Shown in pieces: positions 3,150-60,152 of a stretch of 64,000 nt of DNA. The translations under genes were made by a program, and so were the position numbers. The stretch lies in the UHGV virus genome UHGV-1366123; one strand, given 5' to 3'. The notes below the pieces were generated by a model that did no database searches, was not told the DNA's origin, and saw only the letters and a program-made list of their open reading frames with translations. Numbering within the stretch: position 1 is the stretch's first letter; every line of letters begins with the position of its first letter. Source of the stretch: a virus.

Positions 3150-3155
3150 CCGAAC

Positions 3156-8410: not shown

Positions 8411-8415
8411 AAGGA

Positions 8416-8450: not shown

Positions 8451-8468
8451 TCCGTATATGTCCATATC

Positions 8469-8484: not shown

Positions 8485-8493
8485 TGTTGAAGA

Positions 8494-17176: not shown

Positions 17177-17287
17177 GGCATAAGGCACATACTCAAACAC
17201 AAAAATATCTTCGAAAGCACAGAGAGGTATCTTCGTTGAACTCGGAGATACCTCTCGCTGTTTTCATATTAGAAGAAAAAGATAGGA

Positions 17288-17307
17288 CAAGGAAAGTACC
17301 TTCCTTG
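17288..17307. repeat. GTAC-centred palindrome caaggaaagtaccttccttg (dispersed family)
   Basis: 20-bp near-perfect palindrome; family member. Confidence 0.7.
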
Positions 17308-26400: not shown

Positions 26401-27238
26401 GGAAGCACTTATTCCTCTTTATGATGGTGTCGTGAAATGGAAGACGACGAAGCTCTCCGATGAAGACAGAACAGCAATACAGAAGAATATCGAAGGAATA
26501 CTCACCACGATTCCTCAAGTGTTCATGTCTCTTGCAGAAGATGCCGATAAGGGAACTGGTATCTTTGGGATAGCAGATAGTGATCTTCAAAAGGGTGTTG
26601 ATGCAGTGAAGATGTTCAATGAACCGTTGAACATGCTTGTCAACACTATTAAAAACTACTCATCGATTAAGGATGCCGATATTTCGTCTCTGAGAATGGG
26701 TGCTACCTTGAAGAAGACACTGCAGATGATCAACGAAGGATTCTCGTTCCTCACGCCCCACAAGGTCGACACGTTCTCGAAGTTCATCAAGCCATTCTCC
26801 GAATTCACGAAGATACTCACGAAGTTCGGTAAAGATATGAAGGATGTCTCGGCAGATTGGAAGTCTATAGAATCCGTGATTGATAAGGCGAACTCGTTCG
26901 AACAGAACAGATCGAGATCTTCATACTCATTCCCTTCACTTTCAAAGCCTTCGGGAGGATCTTTCGCAAGCTATCAGTCATCCACTGGTTTCAAGATAGA
27001 GAAATCAAACAAGGAAACCATGAAAGTGGATAGAAAAGCAGGAGAAACCCCAGAACAGCTCCGAACTCGACAGATTGACAAGATCATCCAGTCGATGGGT
27101 ATGATCCTTGATGCTCTTGGTTATAGAAACTCGGATGGTGCTGTCCAACAGAACGCAGTCGCATCGATACTTTCTGACCTTAAGGATCTGTTTATGGATG
27201 GTAATGCTAAGGTGAGAGTGAATGGCAAGATTGGCTAA
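23402..27238 (+). CDS. tape-measure-like / internal virion protein with TM segments and four tandem ~45-aa repeats (1278 aa)
   Basis: Repeats LADGVRKWTEMKI.., LADGVKKWAEMKL.., LADGVRKWRDAKL.., LYDGVVKWKTTKL..; long hydrophobic central region. Confidence 0.5.
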   Translation: MDIEQFNILYDIFGESLDLQRNSSSKINSIFDGVQSISTNLEEVAKLYKEKLEEEKKLSESVPQMASITSPTSMSDMATVSFYIEQQAILMDKVFGLNGHLFMDTMFSIDKGIQLIAKQKAEISATQPVGGAQLGADMRTLDQISQSINLFVSSINTSVNKRYVKNIATFNKSISVLMKGIKDAVEKLDKQSLDTFSKASMFVVDYTRGVAEIDSRNITDRKIRAIKKAISIFNMQDLRDVSIENTKAIAESMSVFSVHLKPFMDSLSKSKMPSQRRIQKIMNSLGEFVKSFSEVMKNGDASKMKATGDMLSSIGTGIRKFAWRIFIASPLLVLAVPGMTIFKFVVKFLKKELQFIADNAEGLNRGAVGIAKMGLSVLAFAGSMALTTLIMRQIDVRQLVWGLAITSATMYGMSRLFIYFGNSRNSRRIVAGAKAIAFMSASLVIGALSLYSVSQVGIDFVNVGILALSLSALAVVYHFIGKSWVTISKGALAMSVMSLSIYLVSASIAFSSMVAMKSWKGALIFMGLASGIATIWGVAGMFFGYIALGAGAMALVGLSLLTFALPLKMVGEAMEKSGDALIKHLPEFIKELVVPMSMLGIASPLILLGSVALGAVGASLLPFTKVFEGISKSKVQVDDVSNFSKSMTILAKGASDALSELSFLDTFRIGSLKDVASIVDTFSTSMVKFSTLGDTSKLIDISRNIGEMFKNIMHSVIIATSPDAIKKMYDIDTNWLKIQGSITSASRMSSAMIDLADGVRKWTEMKIDGGDGQKIADNIKSILGIIPASIAPMGRFFDDDDDMWNLWGILRKSDKDVEEKRKFEYLNGQTFSLREVRNGLRFTAKLGDSLGDLADGVKKWAEMKLSSSDVEQIDTNIRTILGVLPRKIADFGAIDKDEVINAGFLGLFQKSSVERGLEYTGDLGQAINSLADGVRKWRDAKLTSADVERITSNLQTIMGVLPALVSQFGEQDKDVIPTGFMGMILKTTVQRGIDYVKGIGEALIPLYDGVVKWKTTKLSDEDRTAIQKNIEGILTTIPQVFMSLAEDADKGTGIFGIADSDLQKGVDAVKMFNEPLNMLVNTIKNYSSIKDADISSLRMGATLKKTLQMINEGFSFLTPHKVDTFSKFIKPFSEFTKILTKFGKDMKDVSADWKSIESVIDKANSFEQNRSRSSYSFPSLSKPSGGSFASYQSSTGFKIEKSNKETMKVDRKAGETPEQLRTRQIDKIIQSMGMILDALGYRNSDGAVQQNAVASILSDLKDLFMDGNAKVRVNGKIG

Positions 27239-27254
27239 AGTGCCCTCTTGATAC

Positions 27255-27336
27255 AAGAAGGGTACTTTCCTTGCAGTCGAAGATGCTCAAAGGTATGAAA
27301 ACAACAGAAGATGTCTTCGAGTGCAAGGAAAGTACC
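27255..27336. repeat. Palindrome-pair module (caagaagggtactttccttg ... gcaaggaaagtacc)
   Basis: Two GTAC palindromes about 50 bp apart just after the TMP stop. Confidence 0.65.
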
Positions 27337-27771: not shown

Positions 27772-30700
27772 ATGGCAAGAGCAACTGTTAGTCTTTCTGA
27801 TTTAAAGACAAAGTTCAAAGGTGCTGGTGTCTTTACCATGATTTCTGATGAATCGGTAACGTCATATAACGCACCTGGTAGAATCTCTGTCCTTGTACCA
27901 GGTTTTTCAAAAGTTGGATGGTTCAACAGACCATTCCTCATCGAAGCAGGTGATGTTGAGACTTTGAGAAATCTGTATGGCGCACGTGATAAGTCGCTTG
28001 AAAGGAAAGGATCATTCTTCCACAAATCAATAGAAGTACTTCTCAAGAATACACCAGTCATTGCGCTTAATCTCGTGAAGTTCAATGATACGCTAAAGGA
28101 AGATGGTACTCCTGCAGAAGATGCAGACAAGGTCGATTTCCTCTCGCTATCCACTGAACCACAGATCAAGAACATCGGCAAGACGACGAAGTTGTATTCT
28201 TCATTCTTCAAGAAGGATGACTGGTTTATTCCTTCTGCAGAGAATGTTCTCGCAAATAGACGTGATAAGTCAATTTTTAATCTTGTAAACCTTTCACAGC
28301 AAAAACTCTCATTCATCATCAAGAAGGCAGAACTTCGAGGTTATGACATGAAGCTCAAGGAATGGTATGATGGCAATGTTCCAGCGTACCTTGATCCAGA
28401 GACATCAGTCAACGACTACATCATCGAAGTTATCGCTATTGTTGGTGATTATTCTCAGATTTCTGATTTTGATGTTAGATTCAAGGGACTGTTTGAAGGA
28501 GGTCTTCTGCAGGCAGACAAGCTTGAAGATTTCCTGCGTCGTCAAGATATCGCCATCAAGTTCAGAACTGTAGGATCACTTATCCCAGACTTCCGCACGA
28601 AGAATGGTGAAAATCTCTACATTGAACAGATGATCAACTCGTCGACGATTTCTCACGGTGTCGTTTGTGCAATTGATAGAGAGCAGATCGAAGACAAGCA
28701 GTACAACATGCACGAACGACAGATTGATGTTGTTTGCTCTTCAATCATCCAGAATCCTGCCGATTCTCTGGAGATGCTTTCTCACGTGTCGAAGTCGTTT
28801 GGTCAGAGAACAGTAATCGAGCCACGTGTGTTCTCGGAAGAGATGGTCATCGACGAGATCTCACTGTCCAAGTTTGAAAAGGTAGATGATAAGACTTTCC
28901 TCTTCACCGACAAGTCAGACGATATGTACACGAAGCTTCTCCGTATTGTGAAGACTGGTACTCACCCACACGTGAAGGTAAAGCGGAAGTACACTGTACC
29001 AGAACATGACACATCGCACTCTGAAGATCGTAAGCGTGTTGATGGCATTCTCCACAAGTACACTAACGACACCGCAGTTGGATCAAAGCTGGAAATCACT
29101 GAAATGGGTGATATTCGTCTTGTGTTCGATGAAATCGTATCATTCCCTCTCGGTAAGGCAACTTTCAAGGTTGTGGAAAATGAGAACGCAGTGTTCATCG
29201 ACGGATCTCCTGCAAAGAACGCAGATGATGTCGTGGCATATGCCAAGAAGATCGGTTTCAATGCAGTGAAGACGGATGGTGGTAAGGTCGATATCATCCC
29301 CACTACCAAGAATCTCGCAGAAATAAACACCGAAGTTCTGACGACGGCACGCCACGACGTATTCGACACCTATGATAAGACCACTGGTGATATCATCAAG
29401 AATGTTGCAGGTAACACGAACGTTGCCACTCTCACGAGAGAACAGTCTGATATCAAGGACACTGACCTCAAGGCAACGATTTCGGTCTATGGTGATGGTA
29501 ACATTTACGTTGAAGATGACACCGATAAGAACAAGTGGCTGTTCCTTGAAGACATTCACATCGGTTCTATCGAAAACGGTACTGCTCGTGTATGGGCAGA
29601 AGGCTCAAGCATAAACGGTGATGTTGTCGCTGTTCAGTATGATCAGAAGTCACGTGAAATTTCTGACAGCGTTAGTGTCAACTGCTATGAGTTCTATGTC
29701 TCATCTGTAGGAAATGAAGAAGCACTCTTCCTCAATTCTGCACCGAAGGTAACGATTGGTGAACTCGACTATGGTAACAAGATCGAAAACGTTCTTGATG
29801 TTGTTGCAGATAAGTCCAACAAGCTCTCCTATCAAGATGTTGAACTTATCAAGACCTTCTACAAGACTGCTACGTTCAACATGGAGAACATTCAGAAGAT
29901 ATCGCTTGATCTCTCTTCTATTCGCACTCAGAAAACGTTCGTTGTAGAGCAGAAGGTGTTCGAAAAGAACCCTATCGAAGTCGGGGATAAGATCAAGACT
30001 ACGATGGATGTGCACAATGTGATATCGATCAAGCAGGAACTGGTTGGTGGCAAGAAGTTCTTCATCGTCGAACTCGATGGTTCGATTGGTGATGGTCGTT
30101 TCTACAGAGAGGTTTCTGTTCACGAGCTTACGAAGTTCTACAAGGTGTTCTCTCTTGATGGATTCCAGATTAATCCGAAGTCTATCCCAGATGGATCAAA
30201 CAAGTCCATTCGTGAGATTTACTCAGTGATTTCTGAAACCAACATCGGCAAGGCACTTTCTGATCCCGAAGCGATCTCGTTCCGATATATCGTTGACACT
30301 TTCAATGGTGGTATCGAACCAAAGTGCAAGAGCTACATTTCAGAAATTGCCAAGAAGCGTGATATCTGCATGGCGATCATCAACATTCCTCGTGTCGATG
30401 AGTTCAAGAAGCACAAGAATCCAAGATTCACGGCATCACCCACTTCGACCAATCCTTCTCCTTCGGTAGAAGTCAGATACATCGTTGAAGGTGGGAACAA
30501 GGCAGAATCTCCCGAATGGTTGTTCTCTCTCCCCGAAGAGGAGCAGGGTGCATCACATTCAGCATTCTTCTTCCCAAATGTTTCAGTTACGGAGACTGAC
30601 GGCTCTACGTCATCTATCCCACCTGCCAGCTATGTTGCATCTTGCTTCATGCGCAAGTTTGGGACAACGGACGAATACAAGCCTTCTGCAGGTATCATCC

Positions 30701-31197
30701 GTGGTGCAATAACTGGTGAAGGTGTTACTGGTGTTGACTTCCGTCTTGGATCTGATGATTACCGCTCTCTCATCGAGTTTGGTATCAACCCAATCATCAT
30801 CAAGAACGGCTCTCCGATAATCTACGGTAACGAAACTGGTTATCAGAGATTTACGTCTGCACTCAACAACATTCACGCTCGTGACCTTCTTATAACCATA
30901 ACTGAGGAAACGAAACGACTCATCGATCCTTACGTTTATGATTATAACGATGATACGATGAGAGCAACGATCAGAACTATTCTCAACGGTTATTATGGTT
31001 CTCTCCGTGATGCTTATCGTGCAATCGAAAGCTTTAAGATAACCATTGATAGAACCAACAACCCTGGGTGGCTGGTCGACAACGATGGTGTTCTTATTGA
31101 CGTTGAAGTCACGATTACTGGTGTTGCCAAGAAGTTCATCAACAGAATCACCCTTAAGGGAAGATCGGTGAATCAGACAGGCTTTACCATAATATAA
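27772..31197 (+). CDS. large virion/tail protein (1141 aa)
   Basis: Long ORF immediately downstream of TMP-like gene; beta-rich. Confidence 0.6.
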   Translation: MARATVSLSDLKTKFKGAGVFTMISDESVTSYNAPGRISVLVPGFSKVGWFNRPFLIEAGDVETLRNLYGARDKSLERKGSFFHKSIEVLLKNTPVIALNLVKFNDTLKEDGTPAEDADKVDFLSLSTEPQIKNIGKTTKLYSSFFKKDDWFIPSAENVLANRRDKSIFNLVNLSQQKLSFIIKKAELRGYDMKLKEWYDGNVPAYLDPETSVNDYIIEVIAIVGDYSQISDFDVRFKGLFEGGLLQADKLEDFLRRQDIAIKFRTVGSLIPDFRTKNGENLYIEQMINSSTISHGVVCAIDREQIEDKQYNMHERQIDVVCSSIIQNPADSLEMLSHVSKSFGQRTVIEPRVFSEEMVIDEISLSKFEKVDDKTFLFTDKSDDMYTKLLRIVKTGTHPHVKVKRKYTVPEHDTSHSEDRKRVDGILHKYTNDTAVGSKLEITEMGDIRLVFDEIVSFPLGKATFKVVENENAVFIDGSPAKNADDVVAYAKKIGFNAVKTDGGKVDIIPTTKNLAEINTEVLTTARHDVFDTYDKTTGDIIKNVAGNTNVATLTREQSDIKDTDLKATISVYGDGNIYVEDDTDKNKWLFLEDIHIGSIENGTARVWAEGSSINGDVVAVQYDQKSREISDSVSVNCYEFYVSSVGNEEALFLNSAPKVTIGELDYGNKIENVLDVVADKSNKLSYQDVELIKTFYKTATFNMENIQKISLDLSSIRTQKTFVVEQKVFEKNPIEVGDKIKTTMDVHNVISIKQELVGGKKFFIVELDGSIGDGRFYREVSVHELTKFYKVFSLDGFQINPKSIPDGSNKSIREIYSVISETNIGKALSDPEAISFRYIVDTFNGGIEPKCKSYISEIAKKRDICMAIINIPRVDEFKKHKNPRFTASPTSTNPSPSVEVRYIVEGGNKAESPEWLFSLPEEEQGASHSAFFFPNVSVTETDGSTSSIPPASYVASCFMRKFGTTDEYKPSAGIIRGAITGEGVTGVDFRLGSDDYRSLIEFGINPIIIKNGSPIIYGNETGYQRFTSALNNIHARDLLITITEETKRLIDPYVYDYNDDTMRATIRTILNGYYGSLRDAYRAIESFKITIDRTNNPGWLVDNDGVLIDVEVTITGVAKKFINRITLKGRSVNQTGFTII

Positions 31198-35693: not shown

Positions 35694-35830
35694 AAACCCG
35701 CTATTTTTTAACATCAATATAAAGAGAGAGCCTTGTGTGGACTAGTAACAAAAACTACCCATACAAGGCTCTCGAGTGTATTTCCATTGCGCTCTTTTCT
35801 TTCAAGATTATGAAAACACGATGGAACATC

Positions 35831-35965
35831 TTCGAGCGCAAGGAAAGTACCTCTCTTTGATTTAAGCTTTCGAACACACTTCCCTTGCATTCGAAACTAT
35901 TCAAGAATATGAAAATAGCGGAAAATGGGTCAGAGTTCAAGGAAAGTACCTCTCTCGAATTAGAA
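35831..35965. repeat. Composite ~110-bp module: GTAC palindrome, TTCAAGAATATGAAAATAGCGGAAA, GTAC palindrome (copy A)
   Basis: Near-identical modules at 41722-41825 and 42163-42270. Confidence 0.7.
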
Positions 35966-39753: not shown

Positions 39754-40458
39754 TTATTTTCTCTTTCTGAAAGATATCTTCTTGTCGAACCCATGACCGA
39801 CGATCTTCTGTTCATCGGTCATCTTCACTTCAACACCGTCTTTGATTTTCGAGGAGAGGAAGTTTTGGATCTTGATGAACATCTCCTCTGGAGGAACAAT
39901 CCCACCGAAGTTGATGCACTTCAAGAGTGGATTTTTACAAGTGAAGTAACTTTCAAATCCAAATCTGGCCACCTTCGGGACTATCTCGGACGCTGATATT
40001 TCGAACAGACATCTGAACATGTCGTCGTAGTCTATACGCTCATTTCCAAAACCGTATTTTCTACCGTGAGTGATCATATAAGACATGAACATAGAGAAAA
40101 CGGTATGGGCGTTGTCAATGTTCAGTAAGAACGAGACACTGTCAGAGAGTTTCTCCTTTTCATCGATCTCCTTTGTGCAGATGAGAGAAAGAGAACGTAT
40201 GTCCTTGTGATAGAAACTCAATCTTTGGAAAGGGTGCTCCCCTCTTAAAGAATCTCTCTCGGGATCAACATCAACTCTGAGAAGATACCATGTTGTGGCA
40301 ACTTCTACAAGAAAATAGGCAAGATTATCATGACAAGAAAAACGAACATCTTCGTGCTGTAAATTGAAAGCGTGCCTATCAAACACGATCTTCCTATCTA
40401 CACCATAAACGCCTTGGATGTAGTCGTAGTAGTCTTTGTTCGTGTCAAGGATTAACAT
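39754..40458 (-). CDS. hypothetical protein (234 aa)
   Basis: ORF in minus-strand 3-gene cassette. Confidence 0.55.
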   Translation of the reverse strand: MLILDTNKDYYDYIQGVYGVDRKIVFDRHAFNLQHEDVRFSCHDNLAYFLVEVATTWYLLRVDVDPERDSLRGEHPFQRLSFYHKDIRSLSLICTKEIDEKEKLSDSVSFLLNIDNAHTVFSMFMSYMITHGRKYGFGNERIDYDDMFRCLFEISASEIVPKVARFGFESYFTCKNPLLKCINFGGIVPPEEMFIKIQNFLSSKIKDGVEVKMTDEQKIVGHGFDKKISFRKRK

Positions 40459-40985
40459 ACGTCGAAACTGTGAGCGTAGAATTTTTCGATTGTTGTTGCC
40501 GTATCGATCTTCACATGATCATAACCGAGATCTTTCATCTTCTGATCAAAGTTTTCAAAGAGCTTGTCGTCATTCTCATCTCTGGAAGTGGTATCTTGAG
40601 ATGTATCACGAATCTGTCTTCTTAGGATTGTGACTGTCTTTTCACAGACAAGTTCCGCAATTGTTATCTTTGAACGAAGATTTTGGGGGATATTCTCGAG
40701 ACCAGTTGGTGAAGTGATGAAGAAGTCACAATCTCTGAATTCTTGAAAAGTAGTTCCGTAATATTCTCCTTGGAATTCCATGAACTGGATGAACACACTA
40801 TTATTCACTAATCTCACGAATTCCTCCTTGGAAACAAAGTGATAATCTTTACCGTCTATTTCACCATCTCTTGGTTTTCTTGTAGTATGACCTATTGCTG
40901 GTTTGTATCCAAGAGTTGTAAAAACATCTAAGAAGTGATTCTTACCAACTGCAGATTTACCAACGAAAGCTATCTTCTTCATCAC
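40452..40985 (-). CDS. gmk: guanylate kinase-like nucleoside monophosphate kinase (177 aa)
   Basis: P-loop VGKSAVGKNH and signature GHTTRKPRDGEIDGKDYHFVSKEEF (TTRxPRxGExDGxDYxFVS). Confidence 0.75.
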   Translation of the reverse strand: MMKKIAFVGKSAVGKNHFLDVFTTLGYKPAIGHTTRKPRDGEIDGKDYHFVSKEEFVRLVNNSVFIQFMEFQGEYYGTTFQEFRDCDFFITSPTGLENIPQNLRSKITIAELVCEKTVTILRRQIRDTSQDTTSRDENDDKLFENFDQKMKDLGYDHVKIDTATTIEKFYAHSFDVC

Positions 40986-40995: not shown

Positions 40996-41661
40996 TTAGA
41001 AGTTTAAGAACCAGTGAATTGATCTTGCAGAATCGATCAGACCATCCAGATTTCTTACTGATTCTTCTGATTTTTCAATGACTTTCTCGTTTGGCATCTT
41101 ATATTCCAAAGATGGGTAAGGATTTTTATAGAAGACAGAAGGATTGAAGAATGTGTAAAGAAGAATCTCTTCACGGATCATCTTGTAAACGTTCATTATT
41201 TCCTCTGGAGATTTTGAAGAGAGATCGTGAACAACAGTTATGTCTCGCATATCAAGAATCTTCATCTTGTTCCGTGTCTTTATAGAAAACTGCTTATAGA
41301 ACACTGGATCGGATTCCACAATGTAATAGTCTTCACAAAAGAGACCGTCACGAATAAACGGAATCGTTTCCTCGTGATTCTCAGTTTTAATACCTTCGTC
41401 GTTGATTATCATATCTTGATATGAAACCACCAAATCACCCCTTCGAGAGTATAAGTCAAGATCGATATTTTCAATCCTTGCTTGTCTACCTTCGATGATT
41501 ATGAAGATATCGTGGTTCAAGACCATATTTCTGAATTGTTCTAATGATTTCATTGTCTTCTTTGTATTCTTATGGAAATCCGACGAATCTACTTCATACG
41601 TCTTATAATGAGCAGAAAGTTGTTGTTTTTGTTCAGAAGATCGGTGGAAATGGGAAGACAA
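40996..41661 (-). CDS. hypothetical protein (221 aa)
   Basis: ORF. Confidence 0.55.
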   Translation of the reverse strand: MSSHFHRSSEQKQQLSAHYKTYEVDSSDFHKNTKKTMKSLEQFRNMVLNHDIFIIIEGRQARIENIDLDLYSRRGDLVVSYQDMIINDEGIKTENHEETIPFIRDGLFCEDYYIVESDPVFYKQFSIKTRNKMKILDMRDITVVHDLSSKSPEEIMNVYKMIREEILLYTFFNPSVFYKNPYPSLEYKMPNEKVIEKSEESVRNLDGLIDSARSIHWFLNF

Positions 41662-42956
41662 TGACTAACAGTGAAGACAATCGACCATAATGAAAAACAA
41701 TGACTAAAAATGGTCGAATTAAAGGAAGGTACTTTCCTTGTCCTCGAAGTGACTCAAGAATATGAAAATAGCGGAAACTATACTCAAGCTCAAGGAAAGT
41801 ACCTTCCTGTAATCAGAAGAGGTATTCTGTAAGACTATGGGCTATCGTCGGGAGACAATGGACTATTTCGAAGGATTATGAGAGGATAATCAAAGACTAT
41901 GGAAAGACAATGGCTGATTATTGAAAGACAATGGCTGATTATTGAAAGACTATCGATCATAATCAAAGACAATGAAGGATTGTCGTCTTTGTGTCTTCCT
42001 TGTCTTCAAACTTATCAAATGGGGTGAAAGTAGCTCCAAGTATCTTCAAGTTCAAGGAAAGTACCTTCTTGTAATCAGAAGAGTACTTTTGTCCAATGAT
42101 GGGTTGATAATGAAAGACAATGATGATTATCAAAGGACTATTGAAAGACTATCGACTGTTTTCTTGGTACTTTCCTTGTCCTCGAAGCTATTCAAGAATA
42201 TGAAAATAGCGGAAAGTGTATCAGAATGCAAGGAAAGTACCTTCCTGTAATCAGAAGAGTATTTTTGAACAATTATGGGTTATTGTCGGAAGACAGTAGA
42301 TTATTTCGAATGATTATCAAAGACTATGAAAAGACGATGACTATGAAAAGACAGTCAATCATAATCGAAAGACAATGGACGATTATTGATTAATCATTGA
42401 AGACTTTGAAGGATTGTGGAATGACTATGAAGACAATGGACGATTGTTGAAAAATTCTCAAAAGACTATGAAGGATCATTGAAAGACTATGACGATTGTT
42501 GAAAATTCTCAAAGACTATGAAAAATTCTCAAAGACTTGGATTCTTGGACTAATAGTCAGACTAATTCTTGGAGATTATTCGGCTCAGTTGTCGACAAAC
42601 TGCGTGCTTATTCGTGTGTATTCCCGTGTGTATTCCCGAGTGTATACTCGTATACGCATGCGGTATTTCAAATTATCTGGAAAAGTAAATGCGAAGCATT
42701 TACAACTGGTTTGGAGAACAAACTATGCACGCTAGTGCATAGGTTTCTTCCAAACCATACATTGAGCGCAGAAATATCTTTATTTCTCAGATTAAAAATC
42801 TCCAGTTTAAACGATTGGTACCGCCAGCGTGTTAGGTGACACGCACGTAAAACTGTAGGAATTCCTGCGCTCACGTATGAAACTTTAAAAAACGTACACG
42901 TAAAACTTTAAAAAGATCCAACAATTAACATTCTTTAACATAACCTATCACCTCTC
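41662..42956. repeat. 1.3-kb non-coding repeat region: two ~450-bp tandem units, each a palindrome-pair module followed by an AAGAC(T/A)ATG(G/A) iteron array, then CGTGTGTATTCC direct repeats and palindromes ctatgcacgctagtgcatag, ggtttggagaa/ttcttccaaacc
   Basis: Iteron spacings 11, 21, 21, 20 bp counted directly; no credible ORF. Confidence 0.75.
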
Positions 42957-44273
42957 TTGATTATAGGAATTGTGAATAGACATCATCCGACATCAACTTC
43001 ATCTACTCATCTACTCATCTACTCATCAACTGATCAATTAATCAGACAACTCTACAACGAATTCCAACAAATGATCCTTGAGATAGAACTTAACCACTCA
43101 TCCTTGAAGAAGGGACAGAATGTTACGGAAGAGGACATTCTTATGGAAATATCTCGACTTGAGAGAGAAGCAAGTTATCAGTCCACAATTAACAAAGTCT
43201 CGAAAGTTGCTCTCAATTCAATCTATGGTGTTCTTGGTTATCACTCATTTATCCTTTACGACAGAGAAATTGCAAGATCGGTTTCGGAGCAATCTTCTCA
43301 CGTGATCCGTTACACCATTCTCTTCTTCAATAGGTATTTCCAACAGAGATTCCCAAATCATAGGGAACTACACGCAAAGATGGGGATTACAAAGTGTGAT
43401 CCGATCGATTTCAATGCGGTGAACTATGCTGACACTGATTCCGTGTTTATCCGTTACAAGGACATCATGGACAAGACCGATTACAAGGGGACTCTCGAGG
43501 AATTCGTCTTTGATATCGGTTCGTATGATCTCAATGATTGTGTCAAAGATATGCTCGAAGGCTATATTCGAAAGTTCAACGGATTCCAACAGAAGATCGA
43601 TGGACAACGTTCAATGAAGCTTGCTTTTGAAATGATCTGTCATAATGTCTTGTGGACATCGAAGAAGAAGTACATCAAGAATATCTCTTGGGAAGAAGGT
43701 GTTTATTTCAAGCCACTTGAAAACGTAGAAGTTAAAGGTCTCGACATTAACAAGAGTTCAACGCCAAAGTTTGTTCGAGAACTTCTCCGTGAGACAGTCC
43801 ACTACATCTTGCAACATAGAGAACTCAACCTTCGAGATTTCATCGACCACGTCAAGATGCAAAAATCAAAGTTCGAAAGTGCAAACGTGGAAGACGTTGC
43901 AATCTCTCAGAGAGTTAATGGTTATGAGAAATATGTGATAACTGCAAAAGATGGTGTCTTCGAATACGTCAAAGGTGTAACAATTCAGATCAGAGCTTCG
44001 AGTGTTTATAACGCAGAACTTGCAAAATCGAAGTACAAGCACAAATATCAACAGATCAGATCGGGGATGAAGATTCAGTACTACTATTCAACAGATCCTC
44101 GTAGTGATGTTTTCGCATTTGTCAACGGTGATCCTTGCTATGAGTTCCTTTATCCAATCGATTATTCTAAGCAGTTCGAAATGCTTTATCTTTCACCACT
44201 TAACAAGATAATCACATCGATTGGTGTACAAGCACTGCCTGTTTCATTGATCGCTTTCGATCCACTTTGGTAA
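42957..44273 (+). CDS. family B DNA polymerase, C-terminal (palm/thumb) portion only; likely start ATG 43071
   Basis: Motif B KVALNSIYGVLG, motif C YADTDSVFI, KKKY motif; no exonuclease domain or motif A in-frame upstream; 42957 is a TTG ORF-opening and the first 38 codons are a low-complexity tandem 9-bp repeat. Confidence 0.75.
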   Translation: MIIGIVNRHHPTSTSSTHLLIYSSTDQLIRQLYNEFQQMILEIELNHSSLKKGQNVTEEDILMEISRLEREASYQSTINKVSKVALNSIYGVLGYHSFILYDREIARSVSEQSSHVIRYTILFFNRYFQQRFPNHRELHAKMGITKCDPIDFNAVNYADTDSVFIRYKDIMDKTDYKGTLEEFVFDIGSYDLNDCVKDMLEGYIRKFNGFQQKIDGQRSMKLAFEMICHNVLWTSKKKYIKNISWEEGVYFKPLENVEVKGLDINKSSTPKFVRELLRETVHYILQHRELNLRDFIDHVKMQKSKFESANVEDVAISQRVNGYEKYVITAKDGVFEYVKGVTIQIRASSVYNAELAKSKYKHKYQQIRSGMKIQYYYSTDPRSDVFAFVNGDPCYEFLYPIDYSKQFEMLYLSPLNKIITSIGVQALPVSLIAFDPLW

Positions 44274-46809: not shown

Positions 46810-48213
46810 ATGAACATCTTCGAAGCATTCAACGAAACGAGAACGACGAATGGCGACAGAGCTTATAAGAGGTACATCGGAAATCCTTATGTCGATTTCT
46901 TGTTCAGACTTCAAAAGATCCGTGAAATCGCAAAGTACAAGGGACTTGCAGAAGTGGAGAAACTGATAATAGTCGATTATCCCGAGTTCCTTGAGAAGAG
47001 TGAGTTCAACCGCTTCTTCTCAATGTACATCAGAGATCCTCGTATGGGGATTGGTGAAAGAGAAATCGGTCGTGTTCTCTTGAAAATTCAGAACATTTCG
47101 ATCGATGATGTCATCGAAATCGGTCGTGCCGACGATATTCTCTTCACTCATTCCCCAAAAGAAGTCGTGGGTTATATCAAGGAAGCTATGGACAACGATT
47201 CCATTCGTGGCAACTATGAACTTCTGAAAAAGTGGCTTCCACGTGAGAGATCCAAGAAGTTCAAGATCATCAGAAACGAACTTCGTAGACAGAAGATTTC
47301 GAAGACAATCTACAGAGGATGGTGCGCATCACCCATGACTGTTGAAGCAGTCAGATCACGTGGTGAATTCCCAGATGATTACTCACATGTTCCTTCACTT
47401 TCTATGCTTCGACATAAGAAGGAATTCTTCAAGGATGAAAACTTCAAGAAGTATCTCGAGGAACTCAAGTCTGGGAAAACCAAGATCAATCAGTCCGTTT
47501 CTACACCATACGACATCTTGAGATCATATCGAAACACCGCCTTCAGTGGCTTTGATTATCGTTATACTGCATATGACGGAAAGGTGAATCCCAGTGAGAA
47601 GGGAATGGAACACGACACGTTCTATACAGAAGCTTTCAAGGCTTTGGGTTCGATGAACTTCGGCAAGATCATCCCAATCATCGATGGTTCTGGATCAATG
47701 TTCGACAGATACGACTCGATAGGTAAGGCTCGTTCAATTGGTCACTACGTTGCTCGCCATTCAGATTATCTTCCAAATCACTTCATCGTCTTCTCGGACG
47801 ATTCTCGGATTATGAAGTTGACTAAGGATGAAGACTTCTCCTATGTTCGGGATATGGCGATCATGGAATCGTTTGGTGACTGTACTAACACGAACTTTGA
47901 AGCAGTTTTACGTAATCTGAACAACGTGACAGCAGATCTTCCCGATTATGTCCTTGTTCTCAGTGATATGCAGTTTGACGATTCTTATGATAGAAACGAA
48001 ACACATCTTGATACGCTCAATCAGAAGGGTGTGAAGATGATCTGGTGGAATCTCTCAGTGGACAACGTCACATTACCGACTGTAAGCAAAGATGGGAACG
48101 TCTTCGTCAGTGGTTATTCACCTCAGATTCTGTCGATGCTTTCTGGAGAGTTCGATGCGGAATCCTACGTAACAAAGCTCATCGAAGACTATAAGAAAAA
48201 GAGAAGTAGATAG
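46810..48213 (+). CDS. vWA-domain protein with N-terminal TROVE/DUF2828-like region (467 aa); Ro60-like architecture
   Basis: MIDAS motif IIPIIDGSGSM, downstream TNTNFEAVL and VLVLSDMQFDD typical of vWA. Confidence 0.6.
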   Translation: MNIFEAFNETRTTNGDRAYKRYIGNPYVDFLFRLQKIREIAKYKGLAEVEKLIIVDYPEFLEKSEFNRFFSMYIRDPRMGIGEREIGRVLLKIQNISIDDVIEIGRADDILFTHSPKEVVGYIKEAMDNDSIRGNYELLKKWLPRERSKKFKIIRNELRRQKISKTIYRGWCASPMTVEAVRSRGEFPDDYSHVPSLSMLRHKKEFFKDENFKKYLEELKSGKTKINQSVSTPYDILRSYRNTAFSGFDYRYTAYDGKVNPSEKGMEHDTFYTEAFKALGSMNFGKIIPIIDGSGSMFDRYDSIGKARSIGHYVARHSDYLPNHFIVFSDDSRIMKLTKDEDFSYVRDMAIMESFGDCTNTNFEAVLRNLNNVTADLPDYVLVLSDMQFDDSYDRNETHLDTLNQKGVKMIWWNLSVDNVTLPTVSKDGNVFVSGYSPQILSMLSGEFDAESYVTKLIEDYKKKRSR

Positions 48214-48277: not shown

Positions 48278-48339
48278 AACATATAAGAACAATAACAATC
48301 ATCAACAATAACAATCAAAGACAATAACAATCAAAGACA

Positions 48340-49125
48340 ATGCAAACTTATCTCGATTTGCTCAAGTACGTTCTTGAAAATGGAACAGAAAGAACTGACA
48401 GAACTGGAACTGGAACAATCTCCGTGTTTGGTCATCAAGTGGAATATGACGTAAGTGAAAAGTTCCCAATACTCACCACGAAGAGAATCCACATGAGAAG
48501 TGTCATTATGGAACTTGCTTGGATGCTCAAAGGTGATACCAACGTGAAGTTCTTAAGAGACAATGGTGTGACGATCTGGGATGAATGGGCAGATGAAAAC
48601 GGAGATCTCGGAAAGATCTACGGAAAGCAATGGAGAGATTTCGGAGGGATTGATCAAATCAAGGATATCATCGACCAAATCAAGAACAACCCAGATTCAC
48701 GAAGAATAATCGTCTCGGCTTGGAATCCTGCAGAACTCTCGGAAATGGCACTTCCTCCTTGTCATTGCTTCTTCCAGTTCTACGTCGAAGGTGACCGACT
48801 ATCCTTGAAGCTTTATCAAAGATCTGCTGATCTCTTCTTGGGTGTTCCATTTAACCTTGCACAATACTCACTCTTGCTTTACATTGTTGCAAAGATCTGT
48901 GGAAAGAAACCTCATCGTTTTATCCACTCGTTTGGAGATCTTCATATCTACAAGAATCACTTGGATCAAGTAAAGCTCCAACTATCGAGAAAACCATACG
49001 AACTCGCAGAGGTAAAAATCGTGGGAGATATCGACATTGATAATATCTCCGCAAATCTCATCGATCAAATCGAAATCAAGAACTACGTTCATCATCCCAC
49101 AATCAAGGCGGATGTGAGTGTTTAA
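48340..49125 (+). CDS. thyA: thymidylate synthase
   Basis: Near full-length identity pattern to ThyA: DRTGTGT, catalytic [22 protein letters not shown]. Confidence 0.95.
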
Positions 49126-49140: not shown

Positions 49141-50136
49141 ATGCAGAAAAACTCGGAACAATGCAGAACAATGCAGAAAAAATTCGGAGCAATGTGGAAA
49201 AAACTGAAGGTGGAATTCGTCGCATATGTCGGCAAGTCCTTGTGTGTCAACGATTATACGAATCCGTTCACAGATGAGAAGTACAGAGAATCACTGAGAA
49301 AGTTGATAAATGACACTCGTGAAGGTGCGATTATTCTTATGGACGGAGAGTACTTCGAAATGATGGAAAGATCAAACTTTAGAGTTCCGTCGATTGTTCT
49401 CTTTGATTTTCAACACAAAGACACCAAAGATACGAAGTTCATCTGTTCATACAGTCAACTTTGTGATTTCCTTCGTGGGAGAAACGAGAAGGTCTTCGTT
49501 ATAGGTGGATACGACACATGGGCATCGCTTGTTCAGTACGTCTCCAAAATCCACTTCCTCGTCACTGATGAGAAATGGAACGAGGAAATGACAAGACCAT
49601 TCTTGGATGATGTTCATAAAGTGTGTAAGATAACAAACTACTCAGAATTCCCTAACGGAATAATCCACCAAGAACGTGAATTTGCAGACAATGTTGTGAT
49701 TTGCAACAGTTATGTTTCTAAAGACAAAGGATGTGAACTTTACTGTTGGGATGTTCTTTCACATGTGAATTCTGAAGGTGAACCTGTAAACAGAATACTT
49801 TCGAATGGTGTATCGACAATCGTCGGAGGAGGTGATACGATTTCGATCGTTACAGATTTCAAGATGTACAGAATACCGCCCACAACTGATATCCGTGTTG
49901 TGGAAAATCCTCGTTTCCGTTCGCTTGGTGTTGTTATGCAGTCGTGTAAAATCTCTGGTGGCGACATTATCATTTCTTTTACCAACAACTCACCACACCG
50001 TGTTATGTTGGACTATAAGAAAGTGGTTGCTAATATTCACATAATCGGAGACTACAAACTCATAGGTTGTAATAACGATTTCTCAGAGAATATGGAAACC
50101 AGCAAATGGGGAACTAAACTGATCAAACACTCATAA
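49141..50136 (+). CDS. degenerate DHFR-like domain fused to dUTPase-like beta-barrel domain (paralog 1, 331 aa)
   Basis: GAIILMDGEYFE...VPSIVLF and KVFVIGGYDTWASL resemble DHFR; C-terminal VTDFKMYRIPPTT...SGGDIIISF..VMLDYKKVVANIHII aligns with paralogs. Confidence 0.55.
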   Translation: MQKNSEQCRTMQKKFGAMWKKLKVEFVAYVGKSLCVNDYTNPFTDEKYRESLRKLINDTREGAIILMDGEYFEMMERSNFRVPSIVLFDFQHKDTKDTKFICSYSQLCDFLRGRNEKVFVIGGYDTWASLVQYVSKIHFLVTDEKWNEEMTRPFLDDVHKVCKITNYSEFPNGIIHQEREFADNVVICNSYVSKDKGCELYCWDVLSHVNSEGEPVNRILSNGVSTIVGGGDTISIVTDFKMYRIPPTTDIRVVENPRFRSLGVVMQSCKISGGDIIISFTNNSPHRVMLDYKKVVANIHIIGDYKLIGCNNDFSENMETSKWGTKLIKHS

Positions 50137-50155
50137 GAACAATCACAAACAAAAG

Positions 50156-51214
50156 ATGAAGAAGAACAAGACCGAAATCGAAATGATCCTATTTGTCAAT
50201 GACAAAGGCAAGACAGTCAACGCCCAGAAGTTGTTATCTTCACCCTCCGAAAGTGATCTTCGAGACTATATCGGAAAGATTACAACTGGGAACATCATCG
50301 TCTTTGATGAGGACACGTGTTCTACACTTATCGCTCCATTACCAAACAGAATCTGTGTTGTAATTACCCAGAACAAGGACTTCAATCGTGAAGGGTTTGT
50401 TCGTGTAGAATCTATCCGAGATTTCATCGACATGCTCGGTACGAAGTTCGACAGATATCGTGATGTTTACGTAATGGTCGACAACATTCACATCGCAAGA
50501 AGCTTCATGGGTCATGTCGATAGAGTGAAGATGGTGGAAGTCAAAGGATCAAAGAACCACGACAGATACGAACTCTCTGATGTTCCTTACAAGACAATCA
50601 CTGATATTCGTCGATCTTCGAACGTTGTCGGTGAATACTCTCTCAATGATCTCGTAAAAATCATTGATTATGAGTTTAAAGACAACGTCTTCATGTGCAC
50701 AGCAAGTGTTGATGGCTTTGGATGTTGTGGTGTCTGTGCACGAGAACCAAGAATCCATGTCGACAGCTTTGGTGAAACTGTGAGAAGAAAGTCGGACTGT
50801 CGTGAATCCATAGTCCTTCACAAAGGTGATAGAGTTTTCATGAAGACTGATATCGAGATTTACAGAATTCCCAAGAACGTTTATGTCGATATCAAGACAA
50901 TCTTACATGGCTTTATCTGTAACGGAATCTCTGTGGAATCGTCGAGTATCGCTGACGGTGTCGTCTGTGTTGGACTGATAAACATGGGATCGAAGCCTGT
51001 CACCATTCACAAGGATCAAACAATTGCCATAATGGCGGTCAGAGGTGATCATGAGTTCTTGAAAGTAGAGCATAAAGACTTCCCACGTGAAAAAGTCGAT
51101 GGGTGGAATAACTTCGAACGTGAAGACGAAGATGAAAATCGTCGACCACTAAAGGATGAGTGTTGTGTGGGTAGTATAATGGAACGTTGTGAAGACAGCG
51201 ATTATGACTTTTAA
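50156..51214 (+). CDS. degenerate DHFR-like domain fused to dUTPase-like domain (paralog 2, 352 aa)
   Basis: GNIIVFDEDTCSTLIAPLPNRICVVITQN resembles DHFR; C-terminal KTDIEIYRIPKN...IADGVVCVGLINMGSKPVTIHKDQTIAIMAV resembles dUTPase motifs III-IV. Confidence 0.55.
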   Translation: MKKNKTEIEMILFVNDKGKTVNAQKLLSSPSESDLRDYIGKITTGNIIVFDEDTCSTLIAPLPNRICVVITQNKDFNREGFVRVESIRDFIDMLGTKFDRYRDVYVMVDNIHIARSFMGHVDRVKMVEVKGSKNHDRYELSDVPYKTITDIRRSSNVVGEYSLNDLVKIIDYEFKDNVFMCTASVDGFGCCGVCAREPRIHVDSFGETVRRKSDCRESIVLHKGDRVFMKTDIEIYRIPKNVYVDIKTILHGFICNGISVESSSIADGVVCVGLINMGSKPVTIHKDQTIAIMAVRGDHEFLKVEHKDFPREKVDGWNNFEREDEDENRRPLKDECCVGSIMERCEDSDYDF

Positions 51215-51227
51215 AGAATAATCGATT

Positions 51228-52097
51228 ATGCCAGTAAAGTTTATAGCTTGTACAGATAAGAACTTCGCTGTTGGAAACGATAGCAAACTTCTGTTCAGAA
51301 TTCGAGAAGATATGAAGCTGTTCCGTGAGCTGACGATGGGAAGCATTGTCGTCATGGGCAGGAAGACCTTCGAAGAGATCGGAAAGCCACTTGAAGGTAG
51401 AATAAACATTGTTCTATCAAGATCGGACATTTCTATTGGAGGTGTTCACGTTTTCCGATCGATGGAAGAATTGAAAGCTTTCTGCATGACATCTGAAAAT
51501 CGACAGAAAGATGTCTTTGTGATTGGTGGTGCAGAAATGTGGGAACTCTTTAGAAGATATGTTTCACAGATCCACCTCACGAAAGTCCCAGATGACTGTC
51601 CCGAATACGACACCGTCTTCCCTCATGATCTCTTGACGGCTTTCACACTCGTTCATAAGAATCAGATCGGCATCTATGAAAAGAACTATCAACCGATTGT
51701 CCATGAAGTCTATGACAGACAGAAGGATGTGACGGTTATGAACCGCAAGAATGATAAGCTCGTACCTTTGAGATTTGTCGATGTTCTTGAATATGTCGGT
51801 GATAAACCATCAACGATTCTTAAAGACGATTCAGTGAAGATACTTGCAAATGACAGAATCGCTGTAAAAACTGATCTTCGTGTTTATGAACTTCCTTTAG
51901 ACACGCTTGTCAGTGTGGATGTCGTTCCATCAGTTTTTATGGACAACGGACTGATGATTGCAGGTTGGGATATCTTTGATGATGACTTTATCGTTTACAT
52001 GACACTGATTGGAAAGAAGTCGATTTCACTGAAACGTGGTGATATCATAGCAGACGTTAATTTCTATTCTCGTCATCCTCTGATTTACGCCCCATAA
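51228..52097 (+). CDS. folA: dihydrofolate reductase fused to C-terminal dUTPase-like domain (paralog 3, 289 aa)
   Basis: IVVMGRKTFEEIGKPLEGRINIVLSR and DVFVIGGAEMWELF...IHLTKVPDDCPEYDTVFP are canonical DHFR; C-terminal KTDLRVYELPLDT...GWDIFDDDFIVYMTLIGKKSISLKRGDIIADV. Confidence 0.85.
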   Translation: MPVKFIACTDKNFAVGNDSKLLFRIREDMKLFRELTMGSIVVMGRKTFEEIGKPLEGRINIVLSRSDISIGGVHVFRSMEELKAFCMTSENRQKDVFVIGGAEMWELFRRYVSQIHLTKVPDDCPEYDTVFPHDLLTAFTLVHKNQIGIYEKNYQPIVHEVYDRQKDVTVMNRKNDKLVPLRFVDVLEYVGDKPSTILKDDSVKILANDRIAVKTDLRVYELPLDTLVSVDVVPSVFMDNGLMIAGWDIFDDDFIVYMTLIGKKSISLKRGDIIADVNFYSRHPLIYAP

Positions 52098-57774: not shown

Positions 57775-59205
57775 ATGAAAGCCAAGAAGCATCACGTGGG
57801 CATGTTTGACCACATGTTCCAAAAGGGAAAGATCACATTCTTGCTGGATGGTTACTCCGCAGGTTCATCTGGGAAGGGCAAATGTGAATCTCTGATCGTA
57901 AAGAACACGTCGTTTGGATCTAAAGACAGTGATAAGCGTCTTGCAGTCTGTACCACAAACTCTGCAAATGCGTCACATTGGGTTTATGATGACGGCAAGA
58001 AGATGATGTTCGAAGTCCTCCCTTCATCGGCTTACCTGTACGAAAAGCTCGAGTTCGTGGCTATCGGTCACGGTGCGTCGTTCTCCGTTGAACGTCTCTT
58101 CGAAGAAATCAAGATGAGCGGTCTTCCCCTCGATAAGCTCTTCATCCACCCCAAGGCAGGGATCATCACCAAGATCGACGAAGACTACGAAAAGGGTCTT
58201 TGTGATATCGACGGCAACTATTCGTCACAAGACCACGACGGCACAATTGCAGGTGGTTCAACTTGCTCTGGATCTGGTGCAGTTCGTGCAAAGAAGGTCG
58301 TTCGAAACAAGACGGTGACTTATGCTTACCAAGTCCCAGAACTCAAGCAGTTCATCTGTGATGTCGAAAAGCGTCTTATGACGTTTATGATCAATGGAGG
58401 ATCAGTCCTTCTGCAGATTGGTCAAGGTTTCCCACTTTCGTATGGTCTCGGCTATAACAAGCAGAACTCAACAAGTCGAAATGTGACAATCAGTGCAGCT
58501 TTGGATGATATGAATCTTCCTCCATTCTTCGCAGGTGACGTTATCTTGAATGGTAGAACTTATCCGATCAAGATCAACAACAAGAAGTATCGCCTTATTG
58601 GTGGGAAGCCAGTTGTCCGACTTCACAAGAACTCGGAATCGACGCTCAAGTACTACGCTCATAAGCATCTGTTCGACTTCATCGAAGGAGATGATCACGT
58701 TTCTATCGTCACACGTAAGGAATTCATCAACTTCTACGAAATGCGTGAGTTCCCCTACCTTGAATACGAAGTCATCGAATCGTTCAGTGGTACTGGTTAT
58801 TCTCCAATCTGGAACGAAGAAAGTCACCAGCGAGAAATCACGTGGGAAGATGTCGAAAAGAACTATGGGAAGACAATCCCAGATGATGTAAAATGCACGT
58901 CACTTACCAAGCTCCCCCGAAGAGTCTTTGAGTTCGATAAGAGCCTTCTGCACGACGGTATTCTCTACAATCTCTCTCCAAATGGCAAAACTCATATTGT
59001 CATCAACTTCGTCAACTGGGTAGATGGTGAAATGGACGGAGAACGTGAGAAGATCACCGAAAAGGTCGAAGATTGGCTCTCCAAGAACATGTTCGGCGAA
59101 ATCGACACTATCAACAAGCTCGTAGGTGGTAATGATGAAAAGGTCGTGCTTTCTGTACTCGGGACTGGTCGTGAATCCGACGACTTTGTCGCTGTAGAAC
59201 AGTAA
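57775..59205 (+). CDS. adenylosuccinate synthetase-family enzyme, divergent (PurA/PurZ-like, 476 aa)
   Basis: P-loop GSSGKGK aligns with [30 protein letters not shown] aligns with [32 protein letters not shown] with [18 protein letters not shown] with GAQGTLLDIDHG. Confidence 0.55.
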   Translation: [476 protein letters not shown]

Positions 59206-59738: not shown

Positions 59739-60120
59739 TCTCTCGCTCTTGATGCTCATCTATGGTGTAACAGTGTCACATGCGCAGAACATAGAAATCT
59801 CGAAGAAAGATGCTGTCATAATCAACCACATGTTTGATCAACACAAGCAACTTCTTGAAATCTCCACAATGAAGGATTCGATCATGCAGTCGTTGAGGGA
59901 AGTCGTGGACAACAAGACACTTATCATTGAAAACCAACTTGAACAGCTTCGCAAGTATGACGAAATGATGATGAAGAATGACACGATCATTAATAACCAT
60001 AAGAAGATGGCGGAGATCTATGAGAAATCTCTGAAAAAGGAAAGACAAAAGTCAGTATTTTGGAAATATGTTGGACTTCTTTCCTCTGCAGTGGCTATCA
60101 CCGCATTCATCATAAAATAG
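59722..60120 (+). CDS. small secreted/coiled-coil protein with C-terminal TM (132 aa)
   Basis: Signal-like N-terminus, C-terminal hydrophobic helix. Confidence 0.45.
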   Translation: MKRIISLSLLMLIYGVTVSHAQNIEISKKDAVIINHMFDQHKQLLEISTMKDSIMQSLREVVDNKTLIIENQLEQLRKYDEMMMKNDTIINNHKKMAEIYEKSLKKERQKSVFWKYVGLLSSAVAITAFIIK

Positions 60121-60130
60121 GCTCTCCGAG

Positions 60131-60152
60131 CTTAAGGAAGGTATTTTCCTTG
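60131..60152. repeat. GTAC palindrome cttaaggaaggtattttccttg
   Basis: Family member directly upstream of purB. Confidence 0.6.

Follow-up and report, generated by a model that had tools for sequence, protein, structure and literature searches.

The closest described counterparts of the gene considered here are the two-piece DNA polymerases of a few T4-related phages, in which gp43, the family B DNA polymerase (PolB), is split in the tip of the fingers domain into gp43A and gp43B. This arrangement is found in five such phages (133, 44RR, 31, 25 and 65; Petrov et al. 2006, 2010; PMC3061061), with the two cistrons lying between 2 bp and 3 kb apart (PMC3061061), and the gp43A and gp43B proteins of phage 25 co-purify and are active (PMC2988022). 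An archaeal two-subunit PolB, that of Methanothermobacter thermautotrophicus, is made from unlinked genes 85 kb apart (Kelman et al. 1999, in PMC3061061). Moreover, when Pfu polymerase is cut near the finger tip its full activity can be reconstituted from separately made fragments, and this engineered split has widened the use of gamma-phosphate-modified nucleotides (PMC3061061). The present analysis concerns the C-terminal portion of such a polymerase (referred to as the C-half), which is encoded as a gene of its own in the virus genome UHGV-1366123, together with the long, repeat-rich non-coding region that lies directly in front of it. The stretch of this genome that was analysed, 64,000 nucleotides (nt) in length, is referred to as the window.

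Why should a phage carry a PolB gene that begins only in the fingers domain, and what has become of the rest? The first-pass annotation of the window had noticed a PolB fragment with motif B, motif C and a KKKY motif, lacking the exonuclease domain and motif A, and had offered three causes: a split polB with its N-terminal half encoded elsewhere, a degraded gene, or an unrecognised intervening element. The fragment itself is borne out by the translation, the Pfam match and the alignments described below, and among the three causes it is the split gene that the related genomes support. The reading favoured here, to which a probability of roughly 0.88 is attached, is that 43071-44273 encodes the intact C-terminal subunit of a naturally two-piece polymerase of the T4/RB69 type, and that the repeat region upstream is a separate matter.

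In such an enzyme the N-terminal subunit, of about 498 amino acids (aa), would be supplied by a separate gene on the same strand some 23 kb downstream, just outside the window, and would bring the N-terminal and 3'-5' exonuclease domains, the half of the palm that carries motif A, and the first finger helix with its triphosphate-binding R/K residues. The C-terminal subunit would provide the second finger helix (motif B), the catalytic aspartates of motif C and the thumb. By analogy with gp43A and gp43B of phage 25 and with the engineered split Pfu, the two products would then combine into one polymerase, held together non-covalently by the antiparallel finger helices and by the palm to which both contribute.

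With gp43A and gp43B of Aeromonas phages 25, 31, 44RR and 65 and Acinetobacter phage 133 the locus has in common the T4/RB69-type polymerase, the cut at the finger tip, the same division of the motifs, the separate start and stop codons for each subunit and the lack of an intein. The difference lies in the placing of the genes, since in those phages the cistrons are adjacent and in N-then-C order, whereas here about 23 kb, with genes of nucleotide metabolism, separate the C-half from an N-half that follows it. The Methanothermobacter enzyme is alike in being a two-subunit PolB from unlinked genes, but it is archaeal, its palm is split approximately 83 residues C-terminal to the fingertip position and it is no close relative. 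The engineered Pfu split, although artificial, bicistronic and archaeal, has its cut in the finger-tip region and its halves regain full activity, which makes the mechanism proposed here feasible (PMC3061061). A fingertip-split T4-type PolB is thus already known; what is less familiar is that the halves are unlinked, that the C-half precedes, and that this arrangement is conserved across a very large clade. No description of unlinked fingertip-split PolB genes in phages was found in the literature, within the incomplete collection that was searched.

The C-terminal half as a gene of its own

The longest mechanical open reading frame (ORF) over the gene extends from a TTG codon at 42957 to 44273 and would encode 438 aa. 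Translation most likely begins at the ATG at 43071 and yields a product of 400 aa, since the genes of relatives are called from this same ATG (400 aa) and the length of the sequence upstream of it varies between strains by non-multiples of three. On the same grounds the TTG extension is most likely an untranslated 5' leader. The protein P0001, for instance, likewise has 400 aa and is 98% identical to the C-half.

The product is matched by Pfam DNA_pol_B with an E-value of 2.5e-15, the match beginning at position 156 of the 453 positions of the profile. Its alignment to RB69 gp43 covers residues ~544-794, where the motif B sequence KVALNSIYG falls on RB69 K560-G568 and both motif C (YADTDS) and the KKKY motif (as SKKKY) find their counterparts, and its alignment to the polymerase of Flavobacterium phage MaF61 (994 aa) covers residues 556-995. 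The ORF 43071-44273 lacks both an exonuclease domain and motif A. Identity to the gp43 proteins of T4-like phages amounts to ~26-29% only.

The C-half is a working gene under strong purifying selection. In eight relatives, at 72-93% nucleotide identity, the frame of 400 codons and its stop are kept without exception, and in the seven of these that stand at 85-93% identity the ratio of synonymous to non-synonymous codon differences ranges from 81:2 to 149:16; for the most distant relative, L090, it is 148:94. Beyond this immediate group, a search space of 5.8 billion proteins yielded 69 homologue clusters, 66 of which hold the stand-alone form of 380-450 aa at identities down to 27%, so that the C-terminal PolB of about 400 aa, standing alone, constitutes a conserved gene family. 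PolB "fragments" of this kind and size should not be labelled as pseudogenes or assembly artefacts. The C-half with the identical gap in front of it was found again in independent assemblies from different samples, and a megablast comparison of this region with 50,697 phage records gave no match.

The N-terminal partner and the position of the split

The search for an ORF with Exo I-III and motif A, which the first-pass annotation had proposed, gave a divided answer. Within the 64-kb window a tblastn search with MaF61 and ten N-half or full-length relatives found nothing, but such ORFs are present in related contigs. With the N-terminal 558 residues of the MaF61 polymerase as query, stand-alone N-halves of 472-503 aa (P0073-P0078) were recovered, which contain Pfam DNA_pol_B_exo1 and the beginning of DNA_pol_B. 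Six IMG/VR contigs, of which five measure 145-151 kb, encode the C-half at 98-100% protein identity, and in all six an N-half lies on the same contig and the same strand, 23.0-23.2 kb downstream of the C-half in the three contigs that were examined in detail. In L012 it is a clean ORF of 498 aa, running from ATG to TAA at 6001-7497. Since L012, L014 and L015 overlap 61.4-64.0 kb of the window at 85-93% identity, the N-half gene of UHGV-1366123 would be expected at window position ~67.4-69.0 kb, about 3.4 kb beyond its end. The relatives thus share the stand-alone C-half and the separate N-half, as a split polB would have it.

The protein encoded by L012:6001-7497 has DNA_pol_B_exo1 followed by positions 26-142 of the DNA_pol_B profile, and its sequence includes Exo I (FWDIETEV), Exo II (GWNVLKFD), Exo III (YGIIDTF), motif A (DYESLFPS) and the first finger helix (FNKRVEAK). 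Its alignment to RB69 gp43 spans 112-486, with N-half residue 475 placed on RB69 486 and the C-terminus following only 23 residues later. Because the N-half alignment stops at RB69 486 and that of the C-half begins at about 544, the break is assigned to the fingertip, where one long finger helix gives way to the other. Each half is an independent cistron that has a start and a stop codon of its own, and on these alignments the catalytic residues are shared out between the two proteins in such a way that neither half has a complete active site.

The same division is widespread. Among 80 IMG/VR loci with relatives of the N-half, on contigs of up to 554 kb, the N-half ORF stops no more than 35 codons past the end of homology in all but one, and at 71 of them there is no C-half within 6 kb. 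At one locus, L056:6001-9213, the N-half ORF runs 620 codons past the homology and the C-half lies about 3 kb further on; this ORF may contain an insertion or be fused to a further domain. The distance between the halves in published huge-phage genomes is 13-130 kb, and they may share a strand or lie on opposite ones: it is 100-130 kb, on opposite strands, in LR756502 and LR745206 (~640 kb) and 13 kb in LR756500, three records that are without annotation. Lak megaphages gave an N-half match only. In a cultured Vibrio phage, 2.058.O._10N.286.46.B8 (MG592662; L108), the 344-aa gene named "DNA polymerase family B" (2645-3679) is the C-half, and an N-half of 502 aa (92-1600) is found about 1 kb upstream. 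As in the three LR records, the halves occupy separate places in the genome, the difference being that here they are only ~1 kb apart. An N-half partner of ~500 aa is easily overlooked in annotation, and that of the Vibrio phage is labelled as a "coil containing protein" (NVP2058O_111).

The split is therefore not a peculiarity of one genome: it is old, and it is common to a large clade of large phages, most of them uncultivated, whose two genes are as a rule unlinked. A fingertip split that had been known from few T4-like phages with adjacent cistrons is the normal state in this clade, where the distance between the genes has grown to 1-130 kb; physical linkage is evidently not needed to maintain an essential composite active site. 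The clade also provides a natural series of split family B polymerases for work on subunit assembly and nucleotide selectivity. Its history may be one of a single split with later re-fusion or of repeated splits, alternatives that a neighbour-joining (NJ) tree lacking support values does not separate. The closest annotated isolate is MaF61, whose PolB (PQ858689, 994 aa) has 32-33% identity over both halves. Chaperonin genes adjoin the MaF61 polymerase as they adjoin the N-half; unlike the split genes, however, the MaF61 gene is contiguous. Synteny with MaF61 through a 1039-aa neighbour taken to be the tail sheath was considered and set aside, as the sheath is found at 27772-31197 and no simple rearrangement scenario results.

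Three points weigh against the two-subunit reading. The N-half is known only from relatives (at 85-93% nucleotide identity and with conserved gene order) and its position is outside the window; the assembly of the subunits and their polymerase activity are attributed to this lineage by analogy only; and a simple NJ tree, which has no bootstrap support, places full-length polymerases of the MaF61 type within the split clade.

How do the other explanations of the truncated gene compare? That the C-half might be the decaying pseudogene of a once complete polB, in a phage that relies upon another polymerase, could be argued from the fact that only the C-terminal 45% of PolB is present and that no N-terminal domains are encoded in the 64-kb window. 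Against this, synonymous changes far exceed non-synonymous ones, eight relatives keep the frame and stop, the ~400-aa form recurs in 66 clusters down to 27% identity, the catalytic motifs expected of a C-half are all intact, and a matching intact N-half exists in related genomes, so that the probability left for decay is close to nil. Hardly greater is the chance that the region in front of the gene is an intervening element (a group I or group II intron, a mobile insertion or the relic of a homing endonuclease) whose splicing would restore a full-length PolB. Its position directly 5' of the truncated gene and the conserved, strongly folding segment inside it invite this idea, as does the fact that in related huge gut phages polymerase genes are often interrupted by introns or endonucleases (PMC12880540). 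But there is no PolB-like coding sequence upstream, where the next genes are on the other strand; the N-half is 23 kb downstream rather than upstream; no intron family is matched even at E-values up to 10; and in relatives whose C-half is 38-56% identical, and which have the identical split, the gap before the gene measures only 15-126 nt. Equally improbable is that a split intein links the two halves post-translationally, by protein trans-splicing as in the PolB of Nanoarchaeum equitans. Unlinked genes for the halves are the typical setting of split inteins, but the tails at the junction leave no room for one: the N-half ends 23 residues past its RB69-aligned part, which does not accommodate an Int-N of ~100 aa, and only ~30-45 residues precede the motif-B helix in the C-half, which does not accommodate an Int-C of ~35 aa. 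Nor is there a Cys/Ser at the junction, an HN-C/S/T block or an intein Pfam domain in either half. The two-subunit polymerase, assembled from independently translated halves, thus remains the favoured reading.

The repeat-rich region upstream of the C-half

The first-pass annotation had described the DNA in front of the C-half as a 1.3-kb non-coding repeat region preceded by genes on the opposite strand, and had connected it with the truncation. Its non-coding and repeat-rich nature is upheld, as is the orientation of the three preceding genes (Table 1), but its length is 1517 nt, because the minus-strand gene starts near 41553 and not at the TTG at 41661, the frame being lost upstream of 41553 in L004 and L005. 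The connection with the truncation falls away: since distant relatives with the same split have only the short gap given above, the long repeat region is lineage-specific and not part of the PolB split, and the two are separate features that happen to adjoin. The longest ORFs within it, of no more than 100 aa, are disrupted in sister strains by 1-nt and other indels, and an alignment of the region from seven strains contains many indels.

Table 1. Features of the C-half gene, the intergenic region before it and the leftward genes beyond (positions in the window)
Feature	Position	Strand	Remarks
234-aa ORF	39754-40458	-	leftward block
Guanylate kinase	40452-40985	-	second gene of leftward block
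Opposite-strand upstream gene	40996-41553	-	first of leftward block; 185 aa, no family match
Intergenic non-coding region between divergent gene blocks	41554-43070		1517 nt; G+C 0.33-0.37, lower than flanks
Iteron-like array	41655-42520	+	~25 units of 9-11 nt, AAAGACWATG; copy number strain-variable, whole-unit indels
Dispersed inverted-repeat cassette, copy 1	41724-41807	-	~84 nt; arms GGAAGGTACTTTCCTTG / CAAGGAAAGTACCTTCC, centre CTATTTTCATATTCTTGA on minus strand
Dispersed cassette, copy 2	41986-42069	-	degenerate left arm
Dispersed cassette, copy 3	42162-42245	-	
Conserved hairpin-rich core	42583-42880	+	~280 nt
A+T-rich stretch	42880-42935		holds second copy of direct repeat CACGTAAAACTKTA (42897-42910)
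Conserved box TAACATAACC...CTCTCTTGATTATAGGAAWTGTGAATAGACATC	42936-42990	+	candidate promoter of C-half gene block; single occurrence in window
In-frame TTG extension of mechanical ORF	42957-43070	+	first 38 codons; C/A/T-rich; 8-nt tandem repeats TCATCTAC/CATCAACT at 42991-43044
polB C-terminal subunit gene, gp43B-like	43071-44273	+	400 aa; second finger helix with motif B, C-terminal palm with motif C, thumb with KKKY

The repeat region is real and unusual in its density of repeats, all of which are far above chance. The motif AAGACWATG, of which 1.8 copies would be expected in the window, is present 19 times, with 14 copies within 41551-42520, and GGAAAGTACCTTCC, with up to two mismatches allowed, has 19 matches against 0.2 expected; in addition there are a 174-nt repeat in three copies and several tandem arrays. 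The iteron sequence of the array is AAAGACAATGGCTGATTATTG. The units show a strong bias of orientation, with 25 on the plus strand and 3 on the minus strand, compared with 125 on both strands of the other 62.4 kb, and their spacings cluster at 11, 21 and 31 nt, which is to say in helical phase, many of the units taking the form CAAT-N8-ATTG in a 21-nt period. The iteron sequence AAAGACAATG is also seen at 48310-48342, where it forms the leader and start codon of the thymidylate synthase gene (caatcaaagacaATG), and beyond the repeat region the iteron core thereby falls at least once on a translation-start context.

Interspersed with the array are the three cassettes, which share one orientation, each made of two near-palindromic arms of 14-17 nt (GGAAGGTACTTTCC) that stand 70 nt apart around a conserved centre. 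Further intergenic copies are located at 5116-5199, 17221-17304, 27187-27270, 35772-35855, 35871-35954 and 60066-60149, and there is a solo site at 109. The dispersed cassettes, with their GGAAGGTACTTTCCTTG arms, are often found beside terminator-like hairpins, and they may be regulatory modules comparable to PeSL cassettes. The possibility that the cassette (MKIAE...KESTFL) or the 21-nt units (MADY*) contain small ORFs was rejected, as the frames are not conserved between copies or strains, and so was a diversity-generating retroelement or CRISPR-like origin of the repeats, there being no reverse transcriptase and no target gene and the units being too short.

Array and core are followed by the A+T-rich stretch. 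The direct repeat CACGTAAAACTKTA has its first copy at 42844-42857, and its second copy is missing in half of the strains. The conserved box is kept in all strains, and partly so in the more distant L109 and L090, and it ends about 80 nt before the ATG; it may be the promoter of the C-half gene block. A number of contigs of this and sister lineages, from several samples (L008, L090, L091, L109 and L110), end inside the repeat region or 125-850 nt from it, L110 ending inside the C-half, which suggests that the repeats break short-read assemblies. As the contigs of the more diverged relatives (L090, L091, L109 and L110), which were sought for covariation, stop at or next to the repeat region, the comparison with them is partial.

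The most conserved part of the region is the hairpin-rich core, in which the fraction of identical columns among five strains is 0.82-0.89, compared with 0.2-0.6 elsewhere in the intergenic region and a median of 0.79 over the window, and so equals that of the best coding segments. The core is non-coding, as a 1-nt indel makes clear. Its part from 42583 to 42767 can close into a four-way junction of three arms, among them a hairpin with a C(GAA)G triloop (42685-42703) and a long hairpin (42707-42757), and further hairpins together with the palindromes GGTACC and GGAATTCC follow after 42767, up to about 42880. Relative to shuffled sequence, the minimum free energy (MFE) of the core has a z-score of -5.5 on the plus strand and -4.6 on the minus strand. 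Covariation is confined to two compensatory pairs in the triloop hairpin and to wobble-only changes, the other helices being invariant. Scans of IMG/VR and JGI metagenomes for exact or gapped patterns of it and an nhmmer search over 100 loci found no core outside this lineage of ~150-kb genomes.

What might such a region be for? In iteron-type origins, such as lambda ori, P1 oriR and those of theta plasmids, phased direct repeats are found next to an A+T-rich stretch, and the PeSL cassettes of the T4 type are dispersed intergenic stem-loop modules. The present region is like the former in its phased direct repeats beside an A+T-rich stretch, but differs in that neither an initiator gene nor any DnaA box was identified; it is like the latter in its dispersed intergenic stem-loops, but the cassette sequence is unrelated. 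It could act as a lineage-specific intergenic hub between divergent gene blocks from which the C-half block would be expressed, and the tentative proposal made here, held with rather less than even confidence, is that it serves as a replication origin, as a transcription-control region for the C-half gene block, or as both. The resemblance to an origin comes from the phased iterons, the structured core and the A+T-rich stretch that adjoin replication genes, and the fit with transcription control from the position between divergent gene blocks and from the dispersed cassettes. Several observations count against this proposal: the cumulative GC skew over the window runs through the repeat region without an inflection, none of the neighbouring genes was recognised as an initiator gene, and scans of the region for sigma-70 promoters and for the terminator consensus both remained at chance level. 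For experimental mapping the region nevertheless presents a definite target, a candidate origin or control locus whose structured core is conserved, in a phage lineage that is abundant and metagenome-derived, with some human-associated samples and no cultured member.

A role purely in transcription control, where the iterons and the paired 14-bp palindromes would be operators and the cassettes PeSL-like promoter or terminator modules, with no part in replication, is somewhat less probable than this broader proposal. It would suit the divergent orientation of the flanking gene blocks, the presence of the cassette in at least six other intergenic gaps, often beside terminator-like hairpins, and the conserved box directly before the C-half leader. 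However, some 25 phased iterons in one orientation over 900 bp together with an A+T-rich stretch exceed typical operators and resemble iteron-type origins, no regulator was identified, and matches to promoter consensus sequences are at chance level. More doubtful still is the view that the core is the gene of a structured non-coding RNA, possibly a Y-RNA-like partner of the phage's Ro60-like protein that would act with RtcB in RNA repair. The core is indeed an island of conservation in non-coding DNA, from which a four-way junction can be drawn; its plus-strand z-score, the two compensatory pairs and the fact that the wobble-compatible changes suit the plus strand only all point to an RNA. But most helices are invariant, so that covariation is almost uninformative, the minus strand folds almost as well, and the palindromes GGTACC and GGAATTCC suit protein binding equally.

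The link with Ro60 arises from the DUF2828/DUF7788 protein encoded at 46810-48213 (phrog_850, "RNA-binding protein"), whose AlphaFold model, with a predicted local distance difference test (pLDDT) score of 85.9, shows a ring and a vWA fold like those of Ro60. The top ten PDB matches of this model in Foldseek are all Ro60/Rsr proteins, the best being Ro60 of Thermus phage phiLo (E 3e-8). This gene lies 3.9-4.2 kb downstream of the core, bacterial Y RNAs being encoded within 4 kb of Ro60 genes and on the same strand (PMC4201824), and RtcB is encoded at 20685-21881. A Y RNA is nonetheless disfavoured on several counts. Rfam searches of 41.4-43.2 kb and 44.2-48.7 kb, both at gathering scores and at E-values up to 10, returned no intron, riboswitch, Y RNA (Y_RNA/YrlA) or other family, and at E-values up to 10 only chance-level snoRNA or miRNA matches appeared in the upstream region. 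No tRNA-like T-arm is visible in the core, a covariance model of it (R1) finds nothing in 100 loci, 79 of them Ro-like, and the Ro-binding motif GNCGAA(N)G is not found in a stem, the core having only UGCGAAG in a hairpin loop. The Ro-like genes of other phages, furthermore, are situated among tRNA genes and not beside such an element. The preferred role of the region thus continues to be that of an origin and/or control region.

In L112, L114, L119, L121 and L122 the Ro60-like (DUF2828) gene lies within or beside arrays of tRNA genes, and in L119 a ROOL RNA is present 4.6 kb downstream of it. Apart from any connection with the core, the Ro60-like protein and the RtcB RNA ligase suggest a phage module for RNA repair or quality control.

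Neighbouring genes

The C-half and the N-half belong to one long block of genes on the same strand, which opens, beyond the intergenic region, with the C-half. Downstream of the C-half come genes for a DUF5131 protein, the Ro60-like protein, ThyA, DHFR paralogues, a PurZ-like synthetase, PurB and MazG, and also a possibly split terminase, the N-half, GroES/GroEL-like genes and gp32. Four of the genes in the region make up a candidate set for 2-aminoadenine (Z) DNA: a PurZ-like homologue of adenylosuccinate synthetase (57775-59205), PurB (60199-61470), MazG (63365-63835) and the guanylate kinase of the leftward block. The best PDB matches of the PurZ-like protein are PurZ of phiVC8 and of S-2L, and its P-loop, GSSGKG, is like the GSTGKG of phiVC8; its best NCBIfam match, amino_Aden_PurZ, is below the cut-off and nearly tied with archaeal-type PurA. 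In a sister lineage PurZ homologues adjoin the N-half. A literature search found no paper in which PurZ is linked with a family B polymerase.

These strands could be drawn together into a single scheme, in which the unlinked fingertip-split PolB would be the ancestral replicase of a large clade of Bacteroidota-associated large phages, extending from genomes of ~100 kb to huge phages with Lak-like N-halves, and would in this lineage replicate a Z genome, the open finger tip contributing to an altered nucleotide selectivity as the engineered Pfu split does with modified deoxynucleoside triphosphates, and the hairpin core and iterons representing a new type of phage origin. As a whole this scheme is a long shot.

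Some smaller observations concern other genes of the genome. A 2340-aa ORF at 8494-15516 matches only PHROGs of unknown function (phrog_14959 and phrog_24896). The large terminase, ~0.7-2.8 kb past the window end as judged from L012, is possibly split as well, with one ORF of 379 aa (L012:3269-4408) that matches Terminase_6N only and another of 272 aa (4463-5281) that has no Pfam match. Finally, the gene for thymidylate synthase is followed by a run of DHFR-like paralogues at 49141-52097, consisting of two genes with a DHFR match and one ORF without, and in the relative L109 there are three DHFR_1 matches at 6482-9319.

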